Origin: Patescibacteria group bacterium
GTDB taxonomy: Bacteria > Patescibacteriota > Patescibacteriia > Patescibacteriales > UBA12465
Assembly (NCBI GenBank): GCA_028692765.1
Contig: JAQUWT010000004.1
Location: forward strand, 405 to 64,404
Direction of reading: 5' to 3'
Length of the DNA stretch: 64,000 nt
Part shown: positions 18,943 through 61,804 of the stretch, piece after piece
Layout: each line of letters opens with the position of its first letter
Position numbering within the stretch: position 1 is the first letter of the stretch
The notes under the pieces: generated by a model
What the model was told of the DNA's origin: nothing
What the model saw: only the letters and a program-made list of their open reading frames with translations
The model's database searches: none
Made by a program: the position numbers and the translations under genes

Positions 18943-18988
18943 CATAATATTGCCAAGTTCGCACCTATACAATATAATAAGAAAATAA

Positions 18989-29825: not shown

Positions 29826-32800
29826 ATGAGCGACATCGCCTCGATAGAAAATTTGATTGACCCAGAGGCCGCTAAAGACGAAGACAGCGTCCAGGGTAAA
29901 TTTGCTAAAAAACAGCAGGAAATCAAATTAAAAGAAATAGAAAAACAAACCGAAGAAAATGCCGCCGCTATCGGCCTGCCTTATGTTAATCTCTTCGGCT
30001 TTCCTATCAGCCCGGATGCTTTAGTTCTAATTCCGGAAGCGCGATCGCGCGAACTTAACGCGGTCTGTTTTTTCTATGACGGCAAGAATATTCGCGTCGC
30101 CTGCCTGGAGCCGAACGAAGAAATCGCTTTGGAAATTCAACGCTTGAATGAACAATATTTTGCCGATGCCAAACTATACCTGGTTTCCCAAAACAGTCTT
30201 GACCAGGCTTTTGAAGCCTATAAAGCCGTGCCGAAAATCAAAAAATATGATTCTGGAGTGGAAATAAGCGAAGAAAGCCTGGAAAAATTCAAGCAAGACA
30301 TTGCCAGTTATAAAAATTTAAACGAGAAAATCAACGAAGTCAATGTCAGCGACATTGTCACTTTGTTGCTGGCAACAGCCATTAAGGTCGGTTCCAGCGA
30401 TATTCATATAGAAGCCGAAGAAAATGGAGTCGCTATCCGTTTCCGCATCGACGGCGTTCTTCAAGAAGCGGCGGTAATTGACCGGGAAAAGTGGAAAAAA
30501 ATAGCGACTCGCATGAAAATTCTGGCAAAGGTTAAAATTAATATTTCCAATAAACCGCAAGACGGACGCTACACCATCCACCTTAAAGACGGAAAAATCG
30601 ATGTTCGCTCATCCTTCCTCCCCACCGCCTACGGCGAAAGCGTGGTTATGCGCCTGCTCAATTCCAAAGCGGTTGCCTTGGAATTTGAAGGACTCGGCAT
30701 CCGCCCGGAAATACTGGAAAAATTAAGGAACGAAATCAGCAAGCCTAACGGCCTGATTCTCACCACCGGTCCGACCGGCTCCGGTAAAACTACGACCTTA
30801 TACGCAGTTTTAAATAAGCTTAATCAACCGGGAACCAAGATAGTAACCTTAGAAGACCCGATTGAATATCAGCTAGCCGGCATCAATCAAAGCCAAGTAG
30901 ACGCCAGCAAGGGCTATACTTTTTCCGACGGCCTGCGCTCAATCCTGCGCCAAGACCCCAATGTTATTATGGTCGGCGAAATCCGCGATTTAGAAACGGC
31001 GGAAATATCCGTGCAAGCATCTCTTACCGGACATTTAGTGCTCTCCACTCTGCACACCAATGATGCCGCCGGTGTTATTCCCCGCCTCATCGACATCGGA
31101 GTAAAGCCATATTTTCTCGTCCCTTCAATTAATGCCGTTATCGGCCAACGCCTAGTCAGAAAGTTATGCCCCTATTGCCGGGAGGAACACAATCTCTCCG
31201 CGGAGGAGGAAGAAAAAGTACAAAAAATATTAGCCGTCATTTCTCCGCGCGCCAATATCAATATTCCTTCCAAATTACCGACAATCTATAAGGCCGGTGG
31301 CGGATGCGAAAAATGCAACCACCTGGGATACAAGGGGCGCATCGGTATTTATGAAATATTTACCATGGACGATAACTTAAAACAGCTGACCATTGATAAA
31401 GCACCTTCCTTTAAAATCCTCCAACAGGCCATCGAAAACGGCATGATTACCATGCTCCAAGACGGTGTCTTAAAAGCCATGGATGGTATTACTTCCTTAG
31501 AAGAAGTCTATCGCGTCATTGGTAATTTTGATTATGTCGACGAGCTTTATGATATCGTCATTTCTCAAACTATCGGCCGAGGCGTTAAGATAACAGCCGA
31601 AGAATACGCCCGCGGCCAAGCCCTCACCAAGCACGTCGGCCAAGCCATTAATCTCAGCGACATCCCTTCTAAGGAATTGATTAAAATGATTATGAGCATG
31701 GCCAGTGCCAGCGATGCCGGCGATGTCCATATTGAACCGGAAGAAAACGGAGTAGCGGTTCGTTTCCGCATTGATGGCGTCATGCACGATATTCTGGATT
31801 TGCCTAAAACCAGCTATCTGCCGATTCTTTCGGAAGTAAAAATCTTGGCCGGCTTCGCCACTAACGTCAAGCGAGCGACTTTAGACGGCCGTTTCAGCGT
31901 CTACCTGCCTGAAAAGAAATTTGATTGCCGTCTATCAATCATTTCCGGCGGTTACGGCGAAACGATTGTTATCCGCCTGCTGATTAATTCAGCCGCCTCT
32001 TTAGACTTAGAGAAATTGGGCATCACTTCTGTCGCCAAGAAAGAATTAGACAAAGCGATGACAAAAACAAAGGGCATCATCATCACCACCGGTCCGACCG
32101 GTTCCGGTAAAACCACGACTCTTTACGGTATTCTTAATAAACTCAACAAATCGGATGTTAAAATAATTACCATTGAAGACCCGATTGAATATCAGCTCCC
32201 GGGCATCATGCAAACGCAGATAGACAACGAACATGGCTACACCTTTGCGGCGGCGATGCGCTCTTTGCTCCGGCAGAACCCCAACATCATGATGATTGGC
32301 GAAATTCGCGACGAAGAAACCGCAAAAATCGCCATTGAAGCGGCAATGACCGGACACCTTGTTCTCTCCACTATCCACGCTAACAGCGCTGCCGGTGCCA
32401 TTTCACGTTTTGCCGGCTTGGGCGTGGATAAATCGTCACTGGCCAATGCCATTGAGTTTTCCATCGGCCAGCGCCTGGCCAGAAGAATCTGCCCTCATTG
32501 CAAAATTGAAGATACGCCCAGCCCGGATTTATTGGCGCAAGCTAAATCGATTTTAGCGGGCATAAAAAATAAAGATATAGAAATTCCTAAAACCCTTAAA
32601 TTCTATAAAGGCGCCGGCTGCGAACAATGTAACCACCTGGGCTATAAAGGAAGAGTCGGCTTATATGAAACCATCCCGTCTTCAAATGAAATCCGCAAGC
32701 TCATTCAAAAAGAAGAAATGACCGATTATGACATCGAGCAGGAAGCGATTAATGAAGGCACAGTCAATATATCCCAAGACGGCATCCTCAAAGCTCTAGC

Positions 32801-32840
32801 CGGAGAAACCAGCTTAGAAGAAGTTTTCCGCGTAATTTAA
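29826..32840 (+). CDS. tandem-duplicated PilB/GspE-family secretion ATPase (two complete ATPase modules in one polypeptide)
   Basis: 1004 aa; T2SSE N-terminal domain, then two modules. Each has Walker A GPTGSGKTT (aa 315-323 and 756-764), IEDPIEYQL, GEIRD, LTGHLVLSTLH/MTGHLVLSTIH and a CxxC...CxxC motif. Confidence 0.9.
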   Translation: MSDIASIENLIDPEAAKDEDSVQGKFAKKQQEIKLKEIEKQTEENAAAIGLPYVNLFGFPISPDALVLIPEARSRELNAVCFFYDGKNIRVACLEPNEEIALEIQRLNEQYFADAKLYLVSQNSLDQAFEAYKAVPKIKKYDSGVEISEESLEKFKQDIASYKNLNEKINEVNVSDIVTLLLATAIKVGSSDIHIEAEENGVAIRFRIDGVLQEAAVIDREKWKKIATRMKILAKVKINISNKPQDGRYTIHLKDGKIDVRSSFLPTAYGESVVMRLLNSKAVALEFEGLGIRPEILEKLRNEISKPNGLILTTGPTGSGKTTTLYAVLNKLNQPGTKIVTLEDPIEYQLAGINQSQVDASKGYTFSDGLRSILRQDPNVIMVGEIRDLETAEISVQASLTGHLVLSTLHTNDAAGVIPRLIDIGVKPYFLVPSINAVIGQRLVRKLCPYCREEHNLSAEEEEKVQKILAVISPRANINIPSKLPTIYKAGGGCEKCNHLGYKGRIGIYEIFTMDDNLKQLTIDKAPSFKILQQAIENGMITMLQDGVLKAMDGITSLEEVYRVIGNFDYVDELYDIVISQTIGRGVKITAEEYARGQALTKHVGQAINLSDIPSKELIKMIMSMASASDAGDVHIEPEENGVAVRFRIDGVMHDILDLPKTSYLPILSEVKILAGFATNVKRATLDGRFSVYLPEKKFDCRLSIISGGYGETIVIRLLINSAASLDLEKLGITSVAKKELDKAMTKTKGIIITTGPTGSGKTTTLYGILNKLNKSDVKIITIEDPIEYQLPGIMQTQIDNEHGYTFAAAMRSLLRQNPNIMMIGEIRDEETAKIAIEAAMTGHLVLSTIHANSAAGAISRFAGLGVDKSSLANAIEFSIGQRLARRICPHCKIEDTPSPDLLAQAKSILAGIKNKDIEIPKTLKFYKGAGCEQCNHLGYKGRVGLYETIPSSNEIRKLIQKEEMTDYDIEQEAINEGTVNISQDGILKALAGETSLEEVFRVI

Positions 32841-36610: not shown

Positions 36611-37648
36611 TCAAAAAAATGGAAAGAAAATCCGCAAAGCCGCCATCAGCCAACGGCGGTGCCAGGCGAGGCGCTGAGAGGAGAAGCTCATTTTGGCGGC
36701 GCCATCGCGCCACCGCTTCCAAATCCTGAGCAAATCGGCTACCGCTTGCTTTTGCTCGAAAAACACCCCTAATTCAAGATTAAAATTAAAAGATAGAATA
36801 TCTAAATTCTGTGAACCGACTAAAGCCTCTTTATCATCGATTATCATTACTTTGGCATGATTCATTTCCGGGGTCAGATAAAAAGTCACGCCCGCCGGAG
36901 CTAAGCGGGAAGCATTAGCATAATTTATTTTATTTAGAAATTTAATATCCGTATCTTGAGGAATAATTATTTCCACCAATACCCCGCGGTGTACGGCATT
37001 ATCCAAAGAAGCTAGAAGCCAGCGCGGCGGCAAAAGATATGGAGTCACTATTTTAATAGAACTCTGCGCCTCCATTAATTTACGGCGATAGTAATTATTA
37101 AGGCTATATTTTTTTTCACCTATTTCCCAAGTATCAATCACCCAGGACTTGAACTTTTTTACCAAAGGCAAACGACTGCTAGCCAACACTTTAGCATCTC
37201 TACCGCCGCAACGCTCATAAGTATAAGCAAAAGAACGTAATAATGGCTTGACAATGCGGCCGCGGAGGCGAATCTGCAAATCATGCCAATGGCGTATTTT
37301 ATCCTCGATATTTACTCCGCCGAAAAAAGCGATTTTTTCATCAATAATTACCAGCTTGCGATGAGTGCGCTTGAGCCAGCGAGAAAAAAATATAAACTCT
37401 ACTCCGGCAGTTCGTAATTCGGCCACGGACACTGATTTCAAACTGATACTGCCGTAGGCATCGGCGATAACTATCACTTTTAATCCGGCTAAAGCCTTTT
37501 CTTTCAGCTTACCCAGGAAATCATGAGTCTGGCGGGTATCATCCAAAAAAATATACATTTCGATGTAAATAGACTGCTGAGCATTCTCAATGGCGCTTAA
37601 AATCCCGTCCCAGGCTTTATTGGAAGTAGTATAAAATTTATAACGCAT
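36611..37648 (-). CDS. phospholipase D / cardiolipin-synthase-like protein
   Basis: 345 aa; two HKD motifs (HRKLVIIDEKIAFFGGVNI and HAKVMIIDDKEALVGSQNL). Confidence 0.85.
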   Translation of the reverse strand: MRYKFYTTSNKAWDGILSAIENAQQSIYIEMYIFLDDTRQTHDFLGKLKEKALAGLKVIVIADAYGSISLKSVSVAELRTAGVEFIFFSRWLKRTHRKLVIIDEKIAFFGGVNIEDKIRHWHDLQIRLRGRIVKPLLRSFAYTYERCGGRDAKVLASSRLPLVKKFKSWVIDTWEIGEKKYSLNNYYRRKLMEAQSSIKIVTPYLLPPRWLLASLDNAVHRGVLVEIIIPQDTDIKFLNKINYANASRLAPAGVTFYLTPEMNHAKVMIIDDKEALVGSQNLDILSFNFNLELGVFFEQKQAVADLLRIWKRWRDGAAKMSFSSQRLAWHRRWLMAALRIFFPFF

Positions 37649-37723
37649 AGAACCATTATACCACGGAGATTAAAAAATAGGCAGATAAAAACCAGGCTAA
37701 CAGCCTGGTTTATTGTATATACT

Positions 37724-38524
37724 TTATGACAGTAAACTCTTAATATCCGGCAGAAAACGTTTGGCCTCGCGACGCCCGATATCAATTAAGGCTTGAGCCA
37801 CCGGCGGATCAAAGTATTTCTTATACCGGTTAGTCTGAATAAAGGCCGAGGTGTCGGGATTAATAACCACATCAGCTCCCCGCAGAGAATGCTTAGATAG
37901 ATTATGGACGGCGATGCGGGTCGCCCGCAAAGCCACTGTCGGCAAATTAAACCTTTTCTCCACAAATTCATGGTGATGATAAAGATTAACGGCTATAATC
38001 TTATCCGCGCCCATCTCTTGGACGAGATTAACCGGAACCGGATTACTCAAGCCGCCATCGACCAGCAGGCGCCCTTTGCTCCTGACGGGCTCAAATACCA
38101 GGGGAACGGAGGTGCTAGCCCTAACGGCCGTTGCCAGACGTCCTTGTTCCAAAGTACACGCCTGCCCACTAACAAGATCGGTAGCGACTATCTTTAAAGG
38201 CAAGCGACAATCGGAAAAATTCTTGCGCCCCAATACTCTTTCTAAAAATATTTCAAATTTACGTCCCGAAACCAAGCCGCCGCGAAAACCCAAATCAAAC
38301 AAAGTCGGCAATTTTTCCTTGTTGTTTAAAACGATTTCTTTCTCCAATAAATCTAAATCGGAATGGATAGAAAAATAGGCGCCGACTAAAGCGCCGATAG
38401 AGGTTCCGCTAATACAATCAATAGGGATATTGTTTTCTTGAAGCACTTGGATGACGCCTATATGAGCGAAGCCGCGGAAACCGCCACTGCCAAGAGCTAA
38501 ACCGATTTTAGAACGAGAAGGCAT
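37724..38524 (-). CDS. patatin-like phospholipase
   Basis: 266 aa; GSGGFRG oxyanion loop, GTSIG nucleophile elbow, DGG catalytic Asp. Confidence 0.88.
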   Translation of the reverse strand: MPSRSKIGLALGSGGFRGFAHIGVIQVLQENNIPIDCISGTSIGALVGAYFSIHSDLDLLEKEIVLNNKEKLPTLFDLGFRGGLVSGRKFEIFLERVLGRKNFSDCRLPLKIVATDLVSGQACTLEQGRLATAVRASTSVPLVFEPVRSKGRLLVDGGLSNPVPVNLVQEMGADKIIAVNLYHHHEFVEKRFNLPTVALRATRIAVHNLSKHSLRGADVVINPDTSAFIQTNRYKKYFDPPVAQALIDIGRREAKRFLPDIKSLLS

Positions 38525-38577: not shown

Positions 38578-38610
38578 TAAAAAAAGCCGCACTACATTAA
38601 TAGTGCGGCC
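38578..38610 (-). terminator. terminator of the unknown two-gene operon
   Basis: minus strand GGCCGCACTA-ttaatg-TAGTGCGGC followed by UUUUUU. Confidence 0.7.
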
Positions 38611-38630
38611 ACACATCTTTACTAAACAAA

Positions 38631-39659
38631 CTAGTATCTGACGACGAGGTAAGCGCTAGCTGTTTTATATAGCACGTCATACCTAAATTCTACAATTAAG
38701 CTTCCCCTGTCTTTTGTATTCCAGCATTTATAAGCCTCTAGCGAAGGGGCAAAACGCCATTCTCCATCTATTAATTCGCTATTAATACCAGTGGCAACAG
38801 CAAGCCAGCCATGATTGATGTTCTTGCTTATAATTAGTTCATAATTATCAACGTTCCCAACACGGCGCCCATCAATCTTTAAAGCATACGTTCCCTTGGT
38901 GCTTATAGGACTAAAGTGCTTATAAAAGAAAATGGGGACTACCATATAGCTCGTGGCCTCGATATATAAATCCTGGCAAAAGAATTTGTCGTTGATTTCA
39001 CCAAAGCCGGATTGGGTACGAAACCAGAAATTTCCGGTTTTGACGTCATAGTTGACAAAGCTAAAATTGCCAAAACGCCCAATGTTCTTAGTGCCGACAA
39101 ACCCCCAATACTGTTCATAATCGCGGCCAACTTGAACGCCAGCGGAAACAAACAAATGTTCGGGATGATAAGCCGCCCAGGCGTAAACTACTCCGCCGTT
39201 ATCCCAGGAACTATGGACAGGATGGTAACCAAGGCCATAAGCCTCAGCGGTAAACCATTTATTGGCCACCCTCATGCCAACATAATCCCAAGGAATTTGA
39301 TTTTTGCCAATCATTCTGCCAACCTCTCCCATAACCGAAAATCTATTTATCTTGGAGGTCACCCAACCGTCAAAGGCAAACTGATTATTTATTTCGTCTC
39401 CGATTTTTACGACCATGCCGCTTATCTTGGTTATTGAGTCGCTCCAAATCTTAGGGAATGTAACCCCTAAAACGTCGCTAGCGGTCGCCTTATAATCATA
39501 GCGAAAATTGGCAATTGAAGTCTGCACTTCGGTCTTTAGTACCCCTAAATGTGCAGAAGTATCGGCACTTATGGCGCTCTCTATGTTGACCGACTGGCCC
39601 ATAGCTCCGCGACTCATAATGACGAAGAAAGCGAGAAGATGTATTCCTAAATTTTTCAT
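38631..39659 (-). CDS. secreted Trp/Tyr/Gly-rich beta-strand protein of unknown function (342 aa)
   Basis: Signal peptide MKNLGIHLLAFFVIMSRGAMG-QS, alternating hydrophobic pattern throughout, C-terminus ...ASAYLVVRY. Confidence 0.6.
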   Translation of the reverse strand: MKNLGIHLLAFFVIMSRGAMGQSVNIESAISADTSAHLGVLKTEVQTSIANFRYDYKATASDVLGVTFPKIWSDSITKISGMVVKIGDEINNQFAFDGWVTSKINRFSVMGEVGRMIGKNQIPWDYVGMRVANKWFTAEAYGLGYHPVHSSWDNGGVVYAWAAYHPEHLFVSAGVQVGRDYEQYWGFVGTKNIGRFGNFSFVNYDVKTGNFWFRTQSGFGEINDKFFCQDLYIEATSYMVVPIFFYKHFSPISTKGTYALKIDGRRVGNVDNYELIISKNINHGWLAVATGINSELIDGEWRFAPSLEAYKCWNTKDRGSLIVEFRYDVLYKTASAYLVVRY

Positions 39660-39735
39660 TGTGACTAATTTTTTGATTAAACATAATTATTTACATACTA
39701 TCTATTGCCACTATAAAAAGGCAATAAAAAAATAA

Positions 39736-40881
39736 TTATAAACTCAAAGGAATTGGGTCAGGAATACTTCGAAATCCCGCCTCTAATTTGCCATTTAACA
39801 AGCGAAACAACATAAAATTGCATAATGGCAGTGATGGCATAAATTCTTGCGTTCCGGAAATAGCGCCCCCCAGAGAATAATCATCAAAACTCGTAATATT
39901 CGGATGATGCCAGCATACAGCCGAGCAAGAAAAATTAACTACATCTTGATGATAATGACCTGCGACACCAAATCGTGGCCAAAAACTCAATACCAAGGTT
40001 ACCAATATAACCGGTAGTAACGAGTGACGAATAGCCAAACCGCCAGAATCGAGTCTTAGACGATAATCACTAAATCGCAGACTACTATTGGCAAACTTAC
40101 GCACATAAGCCAACTCATCATCGGCAATAAGAGCAAAAAGATTATGCTGGCGCCGTCTAAATTCAACCTCAAACGCCAGGCGACGAGCGCTATAACGCAA
40201 CTCCCTAGACCAAACACGGCCGATAACAACTGGATAAAAGACCACGCAAATGAAGAAACTGAAAGGATTGCTTATCTTCCAACTATCCTTTTCCTGGCGC
40301 CACCAAATGACAATGAGCACTAGGGCAAGTAAAATATTTTTTAGATAAGCTCGACAAAGCCATGCTAAAAACTTGAATAGGACACCTGACCAATATCCAG
40401 GAACAGCCATCTTTTTTTCTAAGGCCAACCTTCGGTAATAAGAATCAGGATCAACAAGGCGTTCATGTTTGTCGCGTTCCAAACTAATTCTTCCCATTAA
40501 AATTTCATAATCTTTTTCCGAATCATGAGCACGATGAAATTTAATACTGCGGTCAAAGATAGAAAGTAGCTGATTAATAGTTTGGCTTGCCTCAATGACG
40601 GCAAAACGATCAAATTCATTGCGCTTTTCACGTAAACGTATATCGCTTAAGTCAGCAAAATATACTTCTGGGGTATAATTTTGTTCGCCCAAAGATTGGG
40701 CCCGCTGCAACTTTTCATGTAAATATTGCCTATCCGCTTTTCCAAAATCAGGTTTGACTGGCGGTTGAGGACCGCTATCTATCCGAGAAAAAAGAGAAAA
40801 TAAGCCAATATTATAAAGAAAAATTACAGCCAACAGCGTTTTAACGGCCGCTAGCCCAATTTTTGTTTTCATAATATTCAT
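39736..40881 (-). CDS. hypothetical membrane protein (381 aa)
   Basis: N-terminal TM, soluble charged region, then about 4 TM segments; no motif recognised. Confidence 0.55.
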   Translation of the reverse strand: MNIMKTKIGLAAVKTLLAVIFLYNIGLFSLFSRIDSGPQPPVKPDFGKADRQYLHEKLQRAQSLGEQNYTPEVYFADLSDIRLREKRNEFDRFAVIEASQTINQLLSIFDRSIKFHRAHDSEKDYEILMGRISLERDKHERLVDPDSYYRRLALEKKMAVPGYWSGVLFKFLAWLCRAYLKNILLALVLIVIWWRQEKDSWKISNPFSFFICVVFYPVVIGRVWSRELRYSARRLAFEVEFRRRQHNLFALIADDELAYVRKFANSSLRFSDYRLRLDSGGLAIRHSLLPVILVTLVLSFWPRFGVAGHYHQDVVNFSCSAVCWHHPNITSFDDYSLGGAISGTQEFMPSLPLCNFMLFRLLNGKLEAGFRSIPDPIPLSL

Positions 40882-40899
40882 TTTTTAAGGTAATAAAGA

Positions 40900-40928
40900 A
40901 TTATATCATTAATTATTAAATTTGTCAA
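40900..40928 (-). promoter_or_regulatory. perfect consensus sigma70 promoter of the unknown operon
   Basis: minus strand TTGACA (40923-40928), exactly 17 nt, TATAAT (40900-40905); the start codon lies about 12 nt after the predicted TSS. Confidence 0.6.
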
Positions 40929-41093
40929 TGATAAAAATTACAAGTAAAAACTAGCCGGGGTTGGAAGATTGTCTAAAATGATGGTTTCTGGGGAGACCGA
41001 CAATATCCTGAAAATTATGAGCATCTTCGGATCTCATTGCCTAAACCCTCCTAAAAAAGCTTCAACAAAAACTAACTTGGACAGAAGCTCAAA

Positions 41094-41128
41094 CAAAAAG
41101 AGATTCCGTAAATATGGAATCTCTTTTA
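41094..41128. terminator. terminator hairpin downstream of tRNA-Glu
   Basis: GAGATTCC-gtaaatat-GGAATCTC with flanking A and T runs. Confidence 0.55.
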
Positions 41129-41133
41129 TATTG

Positions 41134-41205
41134 TAGTCCATAGGGGAATCGAACCCCTGTTACCAGGATGAAAACCTGGTGTCCTAACCACTAGACGAAT
41201 GGACC
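41134..41205 (-). tRNA. tRNA-Glu: tRNA-Glu (anticodon UUC)
   Basis: acceptor GGTCCAT/ATGGACT, anticodon stem CCAGG/CCTGG with loop TTTTCAT, T-loop TTCGATT. Confidence 0.9.
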
Positions 41206-41348
41206 GGATAAAAAAATAGAAACTTGGTTCCTAATTTCAAAAATATTGTATAGATATTTTCCGGCTTTGTCAAATAAAAAATCATATTAGCTAAGACTTC
41301 TCTTGCCTAATATTGCCTTTATTCTAAAAAGCCTTACAATAAGAATAT

Positions 41349-42386
41349 ATGTATATTCTTGGCATTGAAAGCAGTTGCGATGAAAGCGCCGCTTCAGTCC
41401 TTAAAGCCTCCGGACAAAAAGCGGAAATTTTAAGCAATATTATCGCTTCACAAATAAACATCCACGCCCAATATGGCGGAGTCATTCCGGAAATCGCCGC
41501 CCGCGAGCATGTTTTACATATCTTGCCCACTATTGATGCCTCCCTAAAACAGGCAAAAATCACAGCAAAAGACATCAAGGCAATCGCCGTTACCCAAGGA
41601 CCGGGACTAATAACCTCTCTTATTGCCGGGGTGGAAAGCGCTAAGGCGCTATCGCTAATTTGGAAAAAACCTTTAATTCCCGTCCACCATATTATCGGGC
41701 ATATCTATGCCAACTTTATTAACCGTCATCCGACCCCTAAATTTCCTCTCTTAGCCCTAGTAGTTTCCGGCGGCCACAGCAACCTTATTTACATGAAAGA
41801 ACACTACCAATTTAAAATAATCGGAGAAACCAGAGATGATGCCGCCGGCGAAGCCTATGACAAAGCCGCTAAGATGATGAGCTTAAGTTACCCCGGCGGA
41901 CCGATTATTGCCAAATACGCCGAGGAGCATCGCCAAAGCGGTAAAAAATGCACCCTTGAACTTCCCCGTCCGATGCTTAATTCCCCTGATTTTGATTTTT
42001 CCTTTTCCGGCCTTAAAACCGCCTTGTTATATCAATTGCAAAAAGACAAAAGCTGGAAAAAACGCTTACCTGAATACTGTTTTGCCTTTGAACAAGCAAT
42101 TATTGAGACTTTAATTCATAAAACCTTAAAAGCGGCCAATAAATATCAGCCAAAAAGCATTGTTTTAGCGGGCGGAGTGGCGGCAAATAATGCTCTTAGA
42201 ACACAATTATCGGCCAGTATTAAAGATAAAATGCCGACAATTAACTTATTTTTACCGGAAAAACAATACACCACCGATAATGCCGCTATGATTGCTGCTG
42301 CCGCTTATTTTAACTATTATAAGCATAAAAATAAAGCCTTTGTAGACTATTACCGCCTGAAGGCGCGCTGTGATCTCAAAATATAA
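41349..42386 (+). CDS. tsaD: tRNA N6-adenosine threonylcarbamoyltransferase TsaD
   Basis: 345 aa; ILGIESSCDES N-terminus, metal-binding HHIIGH, Kae1/TsaD layout. Confidence 0.93.
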   Translation: MYILGIESSCDESAASVLKASGQKAEILSNIIASQINIHAQYGGVIPEIAAREHVLHILPTIDASLKQAKITAKDIKAIAVTQGPGLITSLIAGVESAKALSLIWKKPLIPVHHIIGHIYANFINRHPTPKFPLLALVVSGGHSNLIYMKEHYQFKIIGETRDDAAGEAYDKAAKMMSLSYPGGPIIAKYAEEHRQSGKKCTLELPRPMLNSPDFDFSFSGLKTALLYQLQKDKSWKKRLPEYCFAFEQAIIETLIHKTLKAANKYQPKSIVLAGGVAANNALRTQLSASIKDKMPTINLFLPEKQYTTDNAAMIAAAAYFNYYKHKNKAFVDYYRLKARCDLKI

Positions 42387-42437
42387 TAATTTGCTTTTTT
42401 AAGCGCAATCCTTTAAAATAATCACATCCCGAAATAC

Positions 42438-42511
42438 GGCTCGATGGTGAAGTGGTCCAACACTGCAGTTTGCAAAACTGCCATTCGTGGGTTCGAATCC
42501 CACTCGAGCCT
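42438..42511 (+). tRNA. tRNA-Cys: tRNA-Cys (anticodon GCA)
   Basis: acceptor GGCTCGA/TCGAGCC, anticodon loop TTGCAAA, discriminator U73. Confidence 0.9.
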
Positions 42512-42523
42512 CAAATCATAAAA

Positions 42524-42561
42524 AGCTTTAGTCTAATTAATATTGGACTAAGGCTTTTTTG
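42524..42561 (+). terminator. terminator after tRNA-Cys
   Basis: GCTTTAGTC...GACTAAGGC stem followed by TTTTTT. Confidence 0.65.
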
Positions 42562-42588
42562 TTTATCATTAAAGGACATACTAAAACT

Positions 42589-42617
42589 TGTGGATAACTT
42601 GTGTTTCCTGTGTATAA
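42589..42617. promoter_or_regulatory. two DnaA-box matches
   Basis: TGTGGATAA (42589-42597, reverse complement TTATCCACA, perfect) and TGTGTATAA (42609-42617, reverse complement TTATACACA, fits TTATNCACA). Confidence 0.4.
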
Positions 42618-42726
42618 AAATTATTTTTTAGTCTAGAAATACCTAGACTTAAAAAGAAAAAATATCATTTATTTTACCTAATATTAAATAATATATTTAA
42701 TATTGGCAGAATAAACAAGGTCAGTC

Positions 42727-42755
42727 TTGCTTTGTCCCCAGATATATGCTATAAT
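42727..42755 (+). promoter_or_regulatory. strong sigma70-like promoter of an orphan noncoding unit
   Basis: TTGCTT (42727-42732), 17 nt, TATAAT (42750-42755) preceded by TGC. Confidence 0.55.
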
Positions 42756-42761
42756 ATCAAT

Positions 42762-43127
42762 AGTTAGAAAAAGTTCTCTTCACTAATTCTTGAATATTTT
42801 TATCGGAGCTAACACGATAAAGAATAGCAAAAATTGCTTACGGAGCAGAAAAAAGTGCTAATCAAAAAGAAGAAAAAGACTTAATAGAATCTAAAAAAGA
42901 AATTTTATCAAGTTTTTATCTGAAAATTAGCAAAATCAATTAAAATAAATAATTCTGCAAAGAAATTGGTAAGAGAAAAAGCTTAAAGTTAGCAAAGCTC
43001 CAAACATAATCCTGGAAAAAGATTGGCAAAAGCCAAAAAACAATTCACCAGGATTGGAGCTCAGACGAGGCCATTATTTATTACTTTATATATTATAAAG
43101 AGGGGCCCGTTCTGGGCTCCTTTTTTA
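42762..43127 (+). ncRNA. candidate about 365-nt A-rich noncoding RNA or long leader of ychF
   Basis: No ORF of 60 aa or more on either strand. Internal hairpin AGCTCC..AATCCTGG / CCAGGATT..GGAGCT (about 42996-43063). Ends in terminator GGGGCCC-gttct-GGGCTCC plus TTTTTT (43102-43126). Confidence 0.4.
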
Positions 43128-58256: not shown

Positions 58257-58342
58257 AATATAGGAAAAACAAAGAAAGTCAAGCGATAGTTTGGCTTGCC
58301 AAAAATATAGCCCTTACTTATAATAAAGCTGTCAGTTACAGG

Positions 58343-58877: not shown

Positions 58878-59030
58878 GCGAAACCATAAATAATCCTGCG
58901 AAGTACGCGCTAACTATGTTGGCCGCCTTGGCTTATTTGCATACAGGAACGGGCACTCCGACCGCATGCAAATAGGCGTCTTCGCAGACACCATTTGTGG
59001 TTTCGCAACCAGGTCGGGTGTCCGTTTTTA
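58878..59030 (+). promoter_or_regulatory. candidate riboswitch-like / attenuator leader upstream of the zinc-ribbon genes (unassigned family)
   Basis: Nested helices: P1 58878-58891/58994-59007, P2 58895-58907/58976-58987, P3 58933-58943/58965-58975. A competing 14-bp helix pairs 58949-58963 with 59012-59025 and is followed by UUUUUAUUUUU. All wobble pairs are G-U on the plus strand. Confidence 0.45.
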
Positions 59031-59043
59031 TTTTTACTAATAT

Positions 59044-59271
59044 ATGAATTTACAAGAGATAAAACAATGTCCTTTTTGTGCCGAAGCTATTAAGGCTGAA
59101 GCTATTAAATGCAAACATTGTGGGGCGGATTTGAAACATAAACCCAATGATTTTAAGTTATTAACAAAAGAAAAATCAAAAGAAGGGTTATTTTTAAAGA
59201 CGATGAATTGCGGTTGCGCAGTTATCTTTTTTATAGCCTTTTTGGTCATTACCCTGGCCATTATAAACTAA
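59044..59271 (+). CDS. zinc-ribbon protein with C-terminal TM anchor (75 aa)
   Basis: CPFCAEAIKAEAIKCKHCG zinc ribbon, hydrophobic C-terminus. Confidence 0.6.
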   Translation: MNLQEIKQCPFCAEAIKAEAIKCKHCGADLKHKPNDFKLLTKEKSKEGLFLKTMNCGCAVIFFIAFLVITLAIIN

Positions 59272-59281
59272 TTAAAATTTT

Positions 59282-60454
59282 ATGAAAAAATGTCCTTTTT
59301 GCGCAGAAGAGGTTCTTGATGAAGCTATAGTTTGCAAACATTGCAAAAGTAGTTTATTAGAAAAAGAGAAATGCTCCTCAAAAAATGAGTTAAAAAATTT
59401 TAGAATAAATCCTAACGGGAAAAATAAAAAAATGTTAAAGATTATTAAAATTATCATTTTAATAATTATTGGTATTTGGTTATGGTATTTAGCATTACCG
59501 GCATTAGCGATATGGTATATTTGGAAAAAGGGCAAATTTAATAAAAAAAAGAAATACATTTTTAGCGGTATTGTTTTAGTTCTTTCAATTGTAATTTGGT
59601 CTAGCTTGATAAAGACTTCAGAAGAAAATAACATGGTTCCAAAATTAATTATTATTGAACCACAGGATAATCAAAGTATCCAGTCTAGCAGTATAACAAT
59701 TAAAGGTAGTGTTTTCCCGAAAAAATCTAAAATAAGGCTTGGGGATTCAGTAATTGAAAAAGATTCTGATGGTAATTTTTCTTACGAAGTTGCACTTGCG
59801 GACGAAAAAAATGTTATATCTGTTATTGCGGAAAATGGGAAGAAAAATGATCAAGCATCCTTAAATATAAATCGTATTTTTACCGAGGCGGAATTAGAAC
59901 AGAGGAAGATTGATGAAGCTAGAAAAAAAGAGCAAGAAGCTATGATTGAGAATGAGGCGGCGCAGAAAAAAATTGAATCAATTGAAAAGGAAATTGATTC
60001 AATTGGTAAATTCGATAATACAAAATATCGAGGCACTCCAGAAAACTTAGCCTTTGAAGTGGCTTTATTTAAAGTATGGGCTATCGAGATACAGGAGGCA
60101 AAAAATGATAGCAACCAAGAAGTAAAAAATATTGGCCAACAACTAGAAAACAAAGTTAAACAATTGCAGATCAAAGAATTTCCCTTAATGAGAAAAGAAT
60201 ACGGGAGTTTGATTGGAAAGAAATTATGGGAAAATGATATAGATGTAAATGTTAGTGGTCAATCATATAATACTATAGAATTTATAGGCGGTATATTTGC
60301 TGCAAATAAAAATATCAAAGAAATCCATGCGACTCTGATAGAAATGCTAGAAATGTTAAGATTTGATAGAGCAAATTATAAATGGTATGAGTATGATTCC
60401 AGTTATTCTTATTTTAAGATTGAGAGTCATGCTGATAGTGATATAGTCCAATAA
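59282..60454 (+). CDS. zinc-ribbon membrane protein with Ig-like and coiled-coil extracytoplasmic region (390 aa)
   Basis: CPFCAEEVLDEAIVCKHCKS (paralogous to the upstream gene), 2-3 TM, beta-rich segment IIIEPQDNQSIQSSSITIKGSV..., Glu/Lys coiled coil. Confidence 0.65.
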   Translation: MKKCPFCAEEVLDEAIVCKHCKSSLLEKEKCSSKNELKNFRINPNGKNKKMLKIIKIIILIIIGIWLWYLALPALAIWYIWKKGKFNKKKKYIFSGIVLVLSIVIWSSLIKTSEENNMVPKLIIIEPQDNQSIQSSSITIKGSVFPKKSKIRLGDSVIEKDSDGNFSYEVALADEKNVISVIAENGKKNDQASLNINRIFTEAELEQRKIDEARKKEQEAMIENEAAQKKIESIEKEIDSIGKFDNTKYRGTPENLAFEVALFKVWAIEIQEAKNDSNQEVKNIGQQLENKVKQLQIKEFPLMRKEYGSLIGKKLWENDIDVNVSGQSYNTIEFIGGIFAANKNIKEIHATLIEMLEMLRFDRANYKWYEYDSSYSYFKIESHADSDIVQ

Positions 60455-60520
60455 CGATATAAAAATAAAATTGAATATTATTGGACGCTATCCAAAAGTG
60501 AAGATATTTTAGATATATTA

Positions 60521-61804
60521 TTATTTTATTTTTATTACTTTATTACTTAATAAAATCTTCCCATTTAAGCACATCAGCAGCTCTCGCTTCTCCTGATCAT
60601 CGCCTTCCTTTAATAAAAATTTAATATAGTTTTTAACATCGACGTCACTCACGTCGATGTTTTGATTTCTGCCAGTAGCCATCATTTGGAATTTCTTGAA
60701 TCTTTTTATCTCTCCCTCAATCTTGTCTTGAACTGGTAACTTTTTAAAATCCAATTTATTAATTTGTTTTTGTAATTGCTTAATTAAATCTTCTTCGCTG
60801 ATATATCCGCACTTACAATTTTTATCCTTTGCCTTGGTGCAACCATAATAAATATGACGGTTATAACCGCCATTTTTTAATTTCTTAAACTTTTCGGTGG
60901 CTGATATTCCTGAACCGCACAATCCGCAGGTCATAATTTTAGTAAAAGCGAATTCAATGTTTTCTCGTCTGACCAGTTGCGAGTTTTTCATTTGATCCTG
61001 AACTAAATCAAATAATTCTTTAGTTATTAATGGTTCGTGCTTTCCTTGATACCAATTGCCACTGCCTCGCGGGTATTCAAATGGGCCATAATAGAAGGTG
61101 TTTTCTAATAAACGATAGATATTGCCAAGACTTAAATGTTTTTTGCCCAGTGCCGTTCGAAAGTTTAAATCAAATCTTAACCAATTATATAGTTTTCTGC
61201 CTGACCATTTTTCATAAGCGACTTTTTCAAACATTTGTCTAATCACGTGGCCTCTATCTGGATCGATTAAGCATTGTCCTTTGTGATCAACTCGCTTTTC
61301 TTTAAAATAACCAGTTGGCGGACAAGTCGGCCATAAACCCCTTTCACATCTAGCTCTTAAGCCTCTTTTTACATTAATACCCCTATTGTCATTTTCGAGT
61401 TTTGCTTGAGAACACAAAATCATAAGCAAAAACTTTTCATTTGGTGAGTTGCTAAATGTCTGACCAAAGGTGCGAATGCTCATTAATTTTTTCTCATCCA
61501 TTAAATCAACTAGTGATCCTAAGTCGCCAGCGTTTCTTGATAATCTATCAGGAGCCCAAGTTAAAATAGCGTTAAATTTTTCTTCTGCTATATCTTTTAG
61601 TAATTCCTTAAAAATGGGACGATTGCCAGAATCTTTAGCGGATTTTGATTCTCGTCTAATATCGACGATTTCTAGATTTTCTCGTTCGGCAATTTGAAGC
61701 ATCTCTTTAACCTGAGAATCAATGGACTGAACCTGTCTTTCATCTGATTCAGTGCTTTTTCTAGCATACAGGCAATACTTTAAGGGAGCGTCTAATGGAG
61801 GCAT
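60521..61804 (-). CDS. large serine recombinase (phage integrase type)
   Basis: 427 aa; resolvase catalytic N-terminus YARKSTESDERQVQSIDSQ, recombinase domain, Cys-rich zinc ribbon CGLCGS...GCTKAKDKNCKCG. Confidence 0.88.
   Translation of the reverse strand: MPPLDAPLKYCLYARKSTESDERQVQSIDSQVKEMLQIAERENLEIVDIRRESKSAKDSGNRPIFKELLKDIAEEKFNAILTWAPDRLSRNAGDLGSLVDLMDEKKLMSIRTFGQTFSNSPNEKFLLMILCSQAKLENDNRGINVKRGLRARCERGLWPTCPPTGYFKEKRVDHKGQCLIDPDRGHVIRQMFEKVAYEKWSGRKLYNWLRFDLNFRTALGKKHLSLGNIYRLLENTFYYGPFEYPRGSGNWYQGKHEPLITKELFDLVQDQMKNSQLVRRENIEFAFTKIMTCGLCGSGISATEKFKKLKNGGYNRHIYYGCTKAKDKNCKCGYISEEDLIKQLQKQINKLDFKKLPVQDKIEGEIKRFKKFQMMATGRNQNIDVSDVDVKNYIKFLLKEGDDQEKRELLMCLNGKILLSNKVIKIK

Follow-up and report, generated by a model that had tools for sequence, protein, structure and literature searches.

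A conserved, unannotated operon of Patescibacteria encodes a membrane protein and a predicted porin-like beta-barrel

Background

Why should a bacterium from a group without a known outer membrane carry, behind a perfect consensus promoter, a gene whose product resembles an outer-membrane barrel? The question is raised by a locus on contig JAQUWT010000004.1 (assembly GCA_028692765.1) of a Patescibacteria group bacterium, of which a stretch of 64,000 nucleotides was analysed (positions 405 to 64,404 of the forward strand; this whole stretch is called the window here, and coordinates given without a locus name refer to it). Two open reading frames (ORFs) follow each other on its minus strand, gene A (39736..40881, 381 aa) and gene B (38631..39659, 342 aa), with a spacer of 76 nt between them. 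A first-pass annotation, drawn from the sequence alone, had proposed that they form a two-gene unit, that the host might belong to the candidate phyla radiation (CPR) and that neither product shows a recognisable motif. All three points have stood up: the two ORFs, of 381 and 342 aa, are co-oriented, scans of Pfam and NCBIfam return nothing for either A or B, and proteins identical to both are deposited as hypothetical proteins (PHG95_01685 for A, PHG95_01690 for B) of a Patescibacteria group bacterium. Close relatives of B come from CPR genomes that look Falkowbacteria-like; the titles of the related genomes include Patescibacteria, Falkowbacteria and a single Saccharimonadales. A-B is a real, conserved and unannotated operon, and it is likely that B represents a new family of exported porin-like barrels made of a single chain.

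Predicted structure of protein B

The structure of B was modelled with AlphaFold2 (AF2) on an alignment of 46 sequences. The model (predicted local distance difference test, pLDDT, 89.4; predicted template-modelling score 0.79) consists of about 20 antiparallel strands connected as hairpins. The strands are 7-16 residues long (mostly 9-12) and the connections on both sides count 2-12 residues, with the sole exception of residues 220-257 (38889..39002, minus strand), which hold a helix (229-240) and the motif FFYKHFSPIxTKG between strands 14 and 15. A Foldseek search of the PDB with this model gave 69 matches at E <1e-3, and the best 50 of these all belong to outer membranes, either as beta-barrel proteins or as chains of complexes. 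The listed matches include OccK/OprD, OmpU, Rhodobacter porins, AlgE, PapC/FimD, TamA and BcsC, those to OccK/OprD being the best (E 3.5e-6, probability 1.0, template-modelling score up to 0.47). Searching the viral structure library BFVD matched porin-type phage-borne proteins only, and these weakly. As in outer-membrane proteins (OMPs), the predicted barrel is antiparallel and even-stranded according to AF2 and Foldseek, and it would probably be closed. The first-pass annotation had left the choice between a barrel and a secreted beta-sandwich adhesin or lectin. The model and its outer-membrane matches support the former; the latter loses ground, as no beta-sandwich lectin, adhesin or soluble barrel is found among the Foldseek matches listed. 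A non-barrel fold of a known family would have spoken against the proposal, and the prediction is instead a barrel with no known sequence family.

When the strand limits are laid over the alignment, most strands of B turn hydrophobic and polar residues to opposite faces in alternation. The polar face holds all of E27, E139, Q216, E274, E308 and E324, which are invariant. Since a barrel of 20 strands needs its polar face at a water-filled lumen, the hydrophobic face should be on the outside. The long connection is also the most conserved stretch of the family, with P242, F244, S250, P251, K255 and G256 invariant, and it probably forms a plug or constriction element within the barrel.

Both ends of the protein had been singled out by the first-pass annotation. 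At the N-terminus, a Sec signal peptide can be read from the sequence at about residues 1-21 (MKNLGIHLLAFFVIMSRGAMG, followed by QSVN), as had been claimed; its hydrophobic core is kept throughout the alignment, as are the small residues at -1 and -3 ahead of the invariant Q22. The mature protein is predicted to start with this invariant glutamine, strand 1 following directly. The richness in tryptophan, tyrosine and glycine is also confirmed (W 3.2, Y 5.8, F 6.7 and G 9.4%), as is the ending ...ASAYLVVRY. The likeness of this ending to the beta-signal of outer-membrane barrels holds only in part: 38 of 46 close homologues end in Y or F, whereas in the wider family only 20 of 58 full-length representatives have an aromatic last residue, and K, R or L is often found there instead.

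No Pfam family matches B at E up to 1, nor does its family profile match any PDB sequence at E up to 10. A word-indexed search found 48 homologues, none of them named or annotated, and an exhaustive search of 1.84 billion cluster representatives with a hidden Markov model (HMM) found 88 related clusters (45 below 1e-30), none of the relatives being in IMG/VR. The family is thus small. Among ten distant relatives scanned with Pfam, nine have no match; the tenth, P0128, is an FMN_bind repeat protein and likely a false positive of the search. Ten representatives (P0070, P0076, P0078, P0080, P0092, P0096, P0102, P0104, P0111 and P0114) have no hydrophobic signal peptide and begin with an ALSGQPDTT-type N-terminus (xxLLxALSGQPDTTxLExK), which precedes a polar extension of about 50-85 aa.

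Comparison with known barrels

The best structural matches of B are the monomeric, 18-stranded OprD/Occ channels of Pseudomonas (4fso, 3sy9, 4fsp and 2y2x; E 3.5e-6 to 1e-4), with which it shares a single-chain barrel of similar size, a signal peptide and, putatively in B, an internal element narrowing the pore. However, B has about 20 strands rather than 18, its connections are very short save one, it comes from a host group without a known outer membrane or beta-barrel assembly machinery (BAM), and it is accompanied by a conserved membrane partner encoded upstream. Identity in the structural alignments is 8-10%, with no sequence relationship, and by the Pfam and PDB sequence searches described above B does not belong to the OprD family. 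General diffusion porins of the OmpF, OmpU and Rhodobacter kind are also among the matches (6ehb, 5onu, 2por and 8prn), and their charge-lined pore, narrowed by an inward-folding loop, is like the pore proposed for B. They differ from it in having 16 strands, long external loops and an obligate trimeric state, while the long insert of B lies between strands 14 and 15 and carries a helix.

Mitochondrial VDAC and Tom40 are compact barrels too, with strands briefly connected at either end and a helix within the lumen, as proposed for B. VDAC, unlike B, is a eukaryotic protein; it counts 19 strands, has its helix at the N-terminus and is missing from the best 50 of the 69 Foldseek matches. Beta pore-forming toxins build their barrel from hairpins contributed by many subunits of a soluble precursor. 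B does not fit this class in its predicted structure, the whole mature chain being modelled as a single barrel (about 20 strands) that leaves no part over for a soluble domain.

Transcription of the operon

The promoter of the operon (40900..40928, minus strand) has a -35 box TTGACA (40928-40923), a 17-nt spacer and a -10 box TATAAT (40905-40900), with TG one base ahead of the latter. It scores 12/12, just as the first-pass annotation had it, and is the sole perfect TTGACA-17-TATAAT match in the window, where six matches with at most one mismatch are found against 0.47 expected by chance. Sigma-70 promoters scoring 11/12 at 41245-41273 (minus), 18950-18978 (plus) and 58296-58324 (plus) sit 11-40 nt 5' of genes for tRNA-Glu, tRNA-Val and tRNA-Arg. 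Since these near-consensus sites precede tRNA genes, consensus sites mark strongly transcribed units in this host, whose most actively transcribed genes are clearly driven by canonical promoters.

This promoter is a recurrent feature of the family. A TTGACA-17-TATAAT-like promoter (at least 10/12) is found 5' of A in 19 of 22 related loci, in eight of them as a perfect match; in relatives it lies 45-89 nt upstream of the start. Bacterial loci in which A is missing have it directly 5' of B, at 11-12/12 (L015, L029, L030 and L038); a truncated copy of B in L028 has no such promoter. As the promoter is kept 5' of A, or of B where A is missing, it is the strong transcription of B that appears to be the conserved feature. 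Conservation of the consensus promoter across the bacterial loci implies, at the level of sequence, that the operon would be highly expressed.

The distance from the end of the -10 box is 18 nt to the first ATG of A and 27 nt to the second, giving a leader of about 11-20 nt without a Shine-Dalgarno sequence; the earlier description of the mRNA as almost leaderless was right as to its shortness but overstated. At the other end, the strong terminator that had been proposed is confirmed: the intrinsic terminator at 38578..38610 (minus strand) has an 11-bp stem (38610..38585, 6 GC pairs) capped by a 4-nt loop and followed by a T7 tail, and its folding energy of -22.5 kcal/mol (z = -5.1) is reached by none of 200 shuffled sequences. 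The impression that the locus is more AT-rich than its surroundings did not hold, its GC content of 0.403 being at the 19th percentile of equal-sized windows and not significantly below the mean of the whole window (0.426, standard deviation 0.032).

The neighbour that had been reported, tRNA-Glu (UUC), is indeed present at 41133..41205 (minus strand). With its own near-consensus promoter (41273-41245) it is a separate upstream unit outside the A-B operon. About 200 nt of non-coding DNA (40929-41132, minus strand) separate it from the operon promoter, and this gap opens with a hairpin and a T-run (AGAGATTCC...GGAATCTCTTTTTG) at which the tRNA transcript is probably terminated.

Protein A and its linkage to B

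The start of A that agrees with the alignment of its family is the second ATG, at 40872, which gives 378 aa and is the start chosen at NCBI. An alignment of 25 sequences shows a conserved N-terminal transmembrane helix with an FLYNIGFFS motif, followed by a soluble helical bundle (about residues 40-160), a hydrophobic helical hairpin (163-228), an Arg-rich segment (229-285), another transmembrane helix (286-303) and a variable tail closing with a conserved GFxxNPDPIPL motif. A is a multi-pass integral membrane protein. The charges of its loops favour an Arg-rich segment on the inside and a C-terminal tail on the outside, but they are ambiguous with regard to topology. The AF2 model of A is poor (mean pLDDT 58.6, only residues 40-160 being confident) because its alignment had only eight sequences, and a Foldseek search with it returned noise, with no match at E <1. 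A second homologue search, with the 25-sequence profile, brought at least one further protein.

Co-occurrence of the two genes in other genomes had been set as a test of the operon by the first-pass annotation, and the proposal passes it. An HMM of A places it directly upstream of B, on the same strand, in 19 of the 23 loci of GTDB species representatives that carry B, and the pair is found in at least three distinct neighbourhoods (L001; L004 and L008; L005). Adjacency and co-orientation, as expected of a conserved unit, are therefore both observed. B occurs without A in the remaining four species loci (L015, L028, L029 and L030), in L038, where it sits beside TsaD in the corresponding position, and in all five archaeal-type loci described below. 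In L015, a 454-aa secreted protein is encoded directly 3' of the A-less barrel gene (L015:7158-8522, plus strand); most of it consists of collagen-like GxY repeats (GPQGPIGPQGPVGPAGPQ...).

A conserved stem-loop between A and B

The RNA of the spacer can fold into a stem-loop (39684..39738, minus strand). Its outer stem is formed by TAATTATTT (39738-39730), which holds the stop codon of A, and AAATAATTA (39692-39684), and it encloses an inner hairpin, ATTGCC (39725-39720) pairing with GGCAAT (39709-39704). The spacers of related A-B pairs are 59-87 nt long and most contain hairpins, 13 of 22 folding with z < -1.64 relative to shuffled sequences. In most relatives the end of A, including the stop region, reads TTAATAATT(G) and pairs with (C)AATTATTAA about 20 nt 5' of the start of B, and the hairpin thus enclosed is variable in sequence. 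The outer stem is 75% paired in the alignment, as against 29-54% when the partner is slid, and its covariation score is above that of all 500 shuffles; one of its pairs, 18-71, is GC in seven sequences, AU in four and UA in two. No promoter internal to the operon was found for B in the spacer (best match 6-9/12). A scan against Rfam recovered tRNA-Glu only, everything else being sub-threshold chance matches, and so ruled out a known RNA family in leader or spacer. We infer from these sequence comparisons that the spacer element may set the relative output of A and B.

Distant members on archaeal-looking contigs

Five loci with distant members of the B family were inspected (L032:8001-9254, L033:8001-9236, L035:8001-9116, L036:8001-9038 and L037:4434-5483; E 1e-64 to 6e-6 against the B profile). 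To judge from their gene content, these relatives sit on archaeal-looking contigs (GCA_027347435.1 and Ga0394675_001758 are among the contigs of this type). Archaeal-type genes are found in four of the five; they include an Elp3 closest to the Methanocaldococcus enzyme along with TrmB and a proteasome-type ATPase, IF-5A (above the NCBIfam cut-off) and NOG1. The fifth, L037, is linked to them by its gene arrangement. In four of the five loci the barrel gene is preceded by a Ser/Thr kinase gene and then by one for a divergent protein (about 300 aa) whose N-terminus is AbrB/MazE-like; in three of those four, a small gene without an assigned family lies 3' of the barrel. Neither A nor a sigma-70 consensus promoter was found in any of the five.

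A channel in an outer envelope layer?

The following explanation could account for these observations. A single highly expressed transcription unit, made up of promoter, A, structured spacer, B and terminator, would supply both proteins, with the stem-loop acting on the processing, stability or translation of the mRNA and so setting how much A is made relative to B. B would be exported via Sec, lose its signal peptide before Gln22 and fold as a single-chain barrel of about 20 strands, a kind otherwise seen only in outer membranes. The hydrophobic strand face would be turned outward, the invariant acidic and polar residues would line the lumen, and the helix-loop 220-257 would fold into the latter as a plug or constriction. 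B would then be an abundant channel-forming component of an extracytoplasmic envelope layer belonging to the bacterium itself, either a protein-rich sheath (toga-like or S-layer-like) or an unrecognised lipid-containing layer, and A would be its partner in the cytoplasmic membrane, whether as anchor, assembly aid or regulator. What the analysis shows directly is the anatomy of the sequence, its conservation, the co-occurrence of A and B and the predicted fold; export, high expression, embedding in a membrane or lattice, channel function and the role of A are parts of this explanation that we infer. As a whole, the reading of B as an abundant channel-forming barrel in an outer envelope layer of the producing cell itself, and of A as its membrane partner specific to the lineage, is put forward tentatively, as plausible while still short of probable.

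Precedents for parts of such an arrangement exist. In Thermotoga, an operon-encoded helical tether and arrays of beta-barrels form a largely proteinaceous outer sheath (PMC10160955). The Omp-alpha/Omp-beta pair found there and the tether and barrel proteins SlpA/OmpM of diderm Terrabacteria resemble A-B in that a helical protein and a barrel are encoded together and make up an abundant proteinaceous layer (PMC10160955), and both the two-gene layout and the implied high expression of A-B match these systems. The resemblance would be a functional analogy only. Thermotoga has BamA, and no sequence similarity was found in the searches run. A, unlike Omp-alpha and SlpA, is a multi-pass membrane protein without SLH domain or long coiled coil; with no Pfam or NCBIfam match and a compact helical bundle followed by hydrophobic helices, it was rejected as a tether of that type. 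A second precedent comes from a CPR bacterium, Mycosynbacter amalyticus, whose Pam pilus has chaperone-usher-like components fitted to an envelope that lacks an outer membrane (10.64898/2026.03.03.709456). It shows that envelope modules of Gram-negative type can be at work in a CPR cell, with membrane-anchored helpers replacing the outer-membrane machinery (10.64898/2026.03.03.709456), although the proteins are unrelated to A and B and Pam includes no transmembrane barrel.

Several points weigh against an envelope channel with A as its partner. The closure of the barrel, its strand count and its hydrophobic belt are predictions drawn from a DSSP string, Foldseek and the alternation of residues, and the aromatic C-terminus is not conserved in the wider family, which leaves no firm beta-signal in the sequences. 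The model of A is poor and its topology, as read from loop charges, ambiguous; nor did the Pfam scan find in A an SLH or other wall-binding domain. Since B occurs without A, A cannot be an obligatory assembly factor. To our knowledge no Omp85 protein or BAM has been described in CPR bacteria, and hence no route of insertion. No Omp85 domain was found in the 20 large window proteins scanned or in the gene tables of the related loci, a genome-wide search not having been made. Finally, the CPR cells described are monoderm (PMC8871954; 10.64898/2026.03.03.709456).

A wider reading takes in the distant relatives; it is possible, but we hold it to be rather doubtful. B would found a group of BAM-independent porin-like barrels present both in a CPR clade and in DPANN-like archaea, all of them ultrasmall, host-dependent and without a classical outer membrane. 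The barrels would there tile a toga-like sheath or else serve as a feeding pore in the membrane of the partner. We know of no archaea that make single-chain transmembrane beta-barrels, and no report of a beta-barrel or porin from CPR or DPANN was found in the literature searched, coverage of which was incomplete. If true, neither archaea nor monoderm-type bacteria would have had OMP-type barrels described in them before, and the genes would have been exchanged between domains. More generally, a conserved and apparently highly expressed porin-like barrel in these lineages might mean that some of the cells possess an unrecognised outer layer, that barrels are assembled by a route independent of BAM, or that episymbionts tap their hosts through barrels, each of which bears on the origin and loss of outer membranes and on the feeding of ultrasmall symbionts.

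A feeding role leads to the first of the alternatives, in which B is a secreted weapon or feeding device that inserts into the membrane of the host cell colonised by this episymbiont, as a conduit for metabolites, A serving for export or self-protection. The producers have no outer membrane or BAM known from the literature, the family has few members and a patchy distribution (88 clusters out of 1.84 billion representatives), its presence in both CPR and archaeal-looking contigs is typical of horizontally exchanged interaction genes, and B can exist without A. However, single-chain barrels of 20 strands are not known to pass between cells, the known secreted pore-formers being multi-subunit, and the short loops and conserved internal plug are less like a toxin than like a regulated channel. 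Constitutive transcription from a consensus promoter, together with a protein of the producer's own membrane, would also suit a housekeeping envelope component better, and we regard a weapon or feeding device as unlikely.

It is also possible to imagine B outside any membrane, as a wall-associated or soluble barrel (a binding protein, an adhesin or a sheath subunit) that hides its hydrophobic exterior by forming homo-oligomers or by packing against A; the adhesin or lectin considered by the first-pass annotation would come under this heading. The very short connections on both sides (2-12 residues) would suit tight packing in a lattice, and the barrel trimers of Thermotoga do form extended protein arrays with only small patches of lipid (PMC10160955). 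Yet the wide lumen of a 20-strand barrel cannot be a hydrophobic core, the invariant charged residues lie on the polar face as in a channel, and the Foldseek matches listed include no beta-sandwich, lectin or soluble barrel. A non-membrane barrel seems rather unlikely as well.

More improbable still is that the lineage has an outer membrane after all, with B as a classical, BAM-inserted porin of a new family. The OMP-like fold, the Sec signal peptide and the aromatic C-terminus of 38 of 46 close homologues are what one would expect of such a porin, and beta-barrel proteins, with BamA, serve as markers of a second membrane (PMC10160955). Against this stand the monoderm nature of described CPR cells (PMC8871954; 10.64898/2026.03.03.709456), the lack of an Omp85 domain among the 20 large window proteins and related-locus gene tables already mentioned, the presence in the window of an LCP enzyme typical of Gram-positive-type walls, and the relatives on archaeal-looking contigs.

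That the whole is an artefact, be it a mis-binned contig of a diderm or a hallucination of AlphaFold, is very improbable and largely refuted: the titles of 11 of the 23 B-bearing species genomes, 'uncultured Gammaproteobacteria' (one bulk submission; L014-L016, L021-L024 and L027-L030), would speak for it, but they are unreliable, the operon lies within conserved CPR synteny on contigs of up to 481 kb, and the model of B is of high confidence on its 46-sequence alignment. We reject a gammaproteobacterial origin of these 11 metagenome-assembled genomes as a labelling problem, given their CPR-type synteny and the TsaD of L015, which is 57% identical to that of the window and in the matching position.

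Genomic surroundings of the operon

The gene order TsaD ... A-B-patatin-PLD-UvrA is common to the window and its relatives. Housekeeping genes of the window include many aminoacyl-tRNA synthetases, topoisomerase I, Der and UvrA, and the window also encodes the LCP (LytR_cpsA_psr) enzyme, a PilB-type ATPase and a VanW protein that carries a peptidoglycan-binding domain. The CPR housekeeping genes, the typical GC content, the common synteny and the absence of viral relatives show the operon to be native, with no contamination of the bin. An origin as a foreign island or from a phage is ruled out on the same grounds (GC at the 19th percentile, synteny kept, none in IMG/VR).

Genes for a patatin-like phospholipase and a phospholipase D (PLD)-type protein (PLDc_2 twice) follow the operon at 36611-38524 (minus strand), as they do in L004, L008 and L034. 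A functional link to the operon was considered and dropped, as the terminator separates the two genes from B, no signal peptide is present on the patatin, and L001 and L005 do not have the pairing. Further away, at 29826-32840 (plus strand), a 1004-aa protein combines an MshEN domain with two T2SSE (PilB-type ATPase) stretches and looks, from its domains, like a tandem-fused secretion or pilus ATPase; a homologue of 1004 aa with MshEN and T2SSE domains is encoded at the end of the syntenic locus L004. Lastly, 1-kb windows of markedly low GC content (0.30-0.32 against a mean of 0.42) are found at 59001-61000, 42001-43000 and 1-1000, with a jump in GC skew at 59-60 kb, and these could be islands or AT-rich intergenic stretches.

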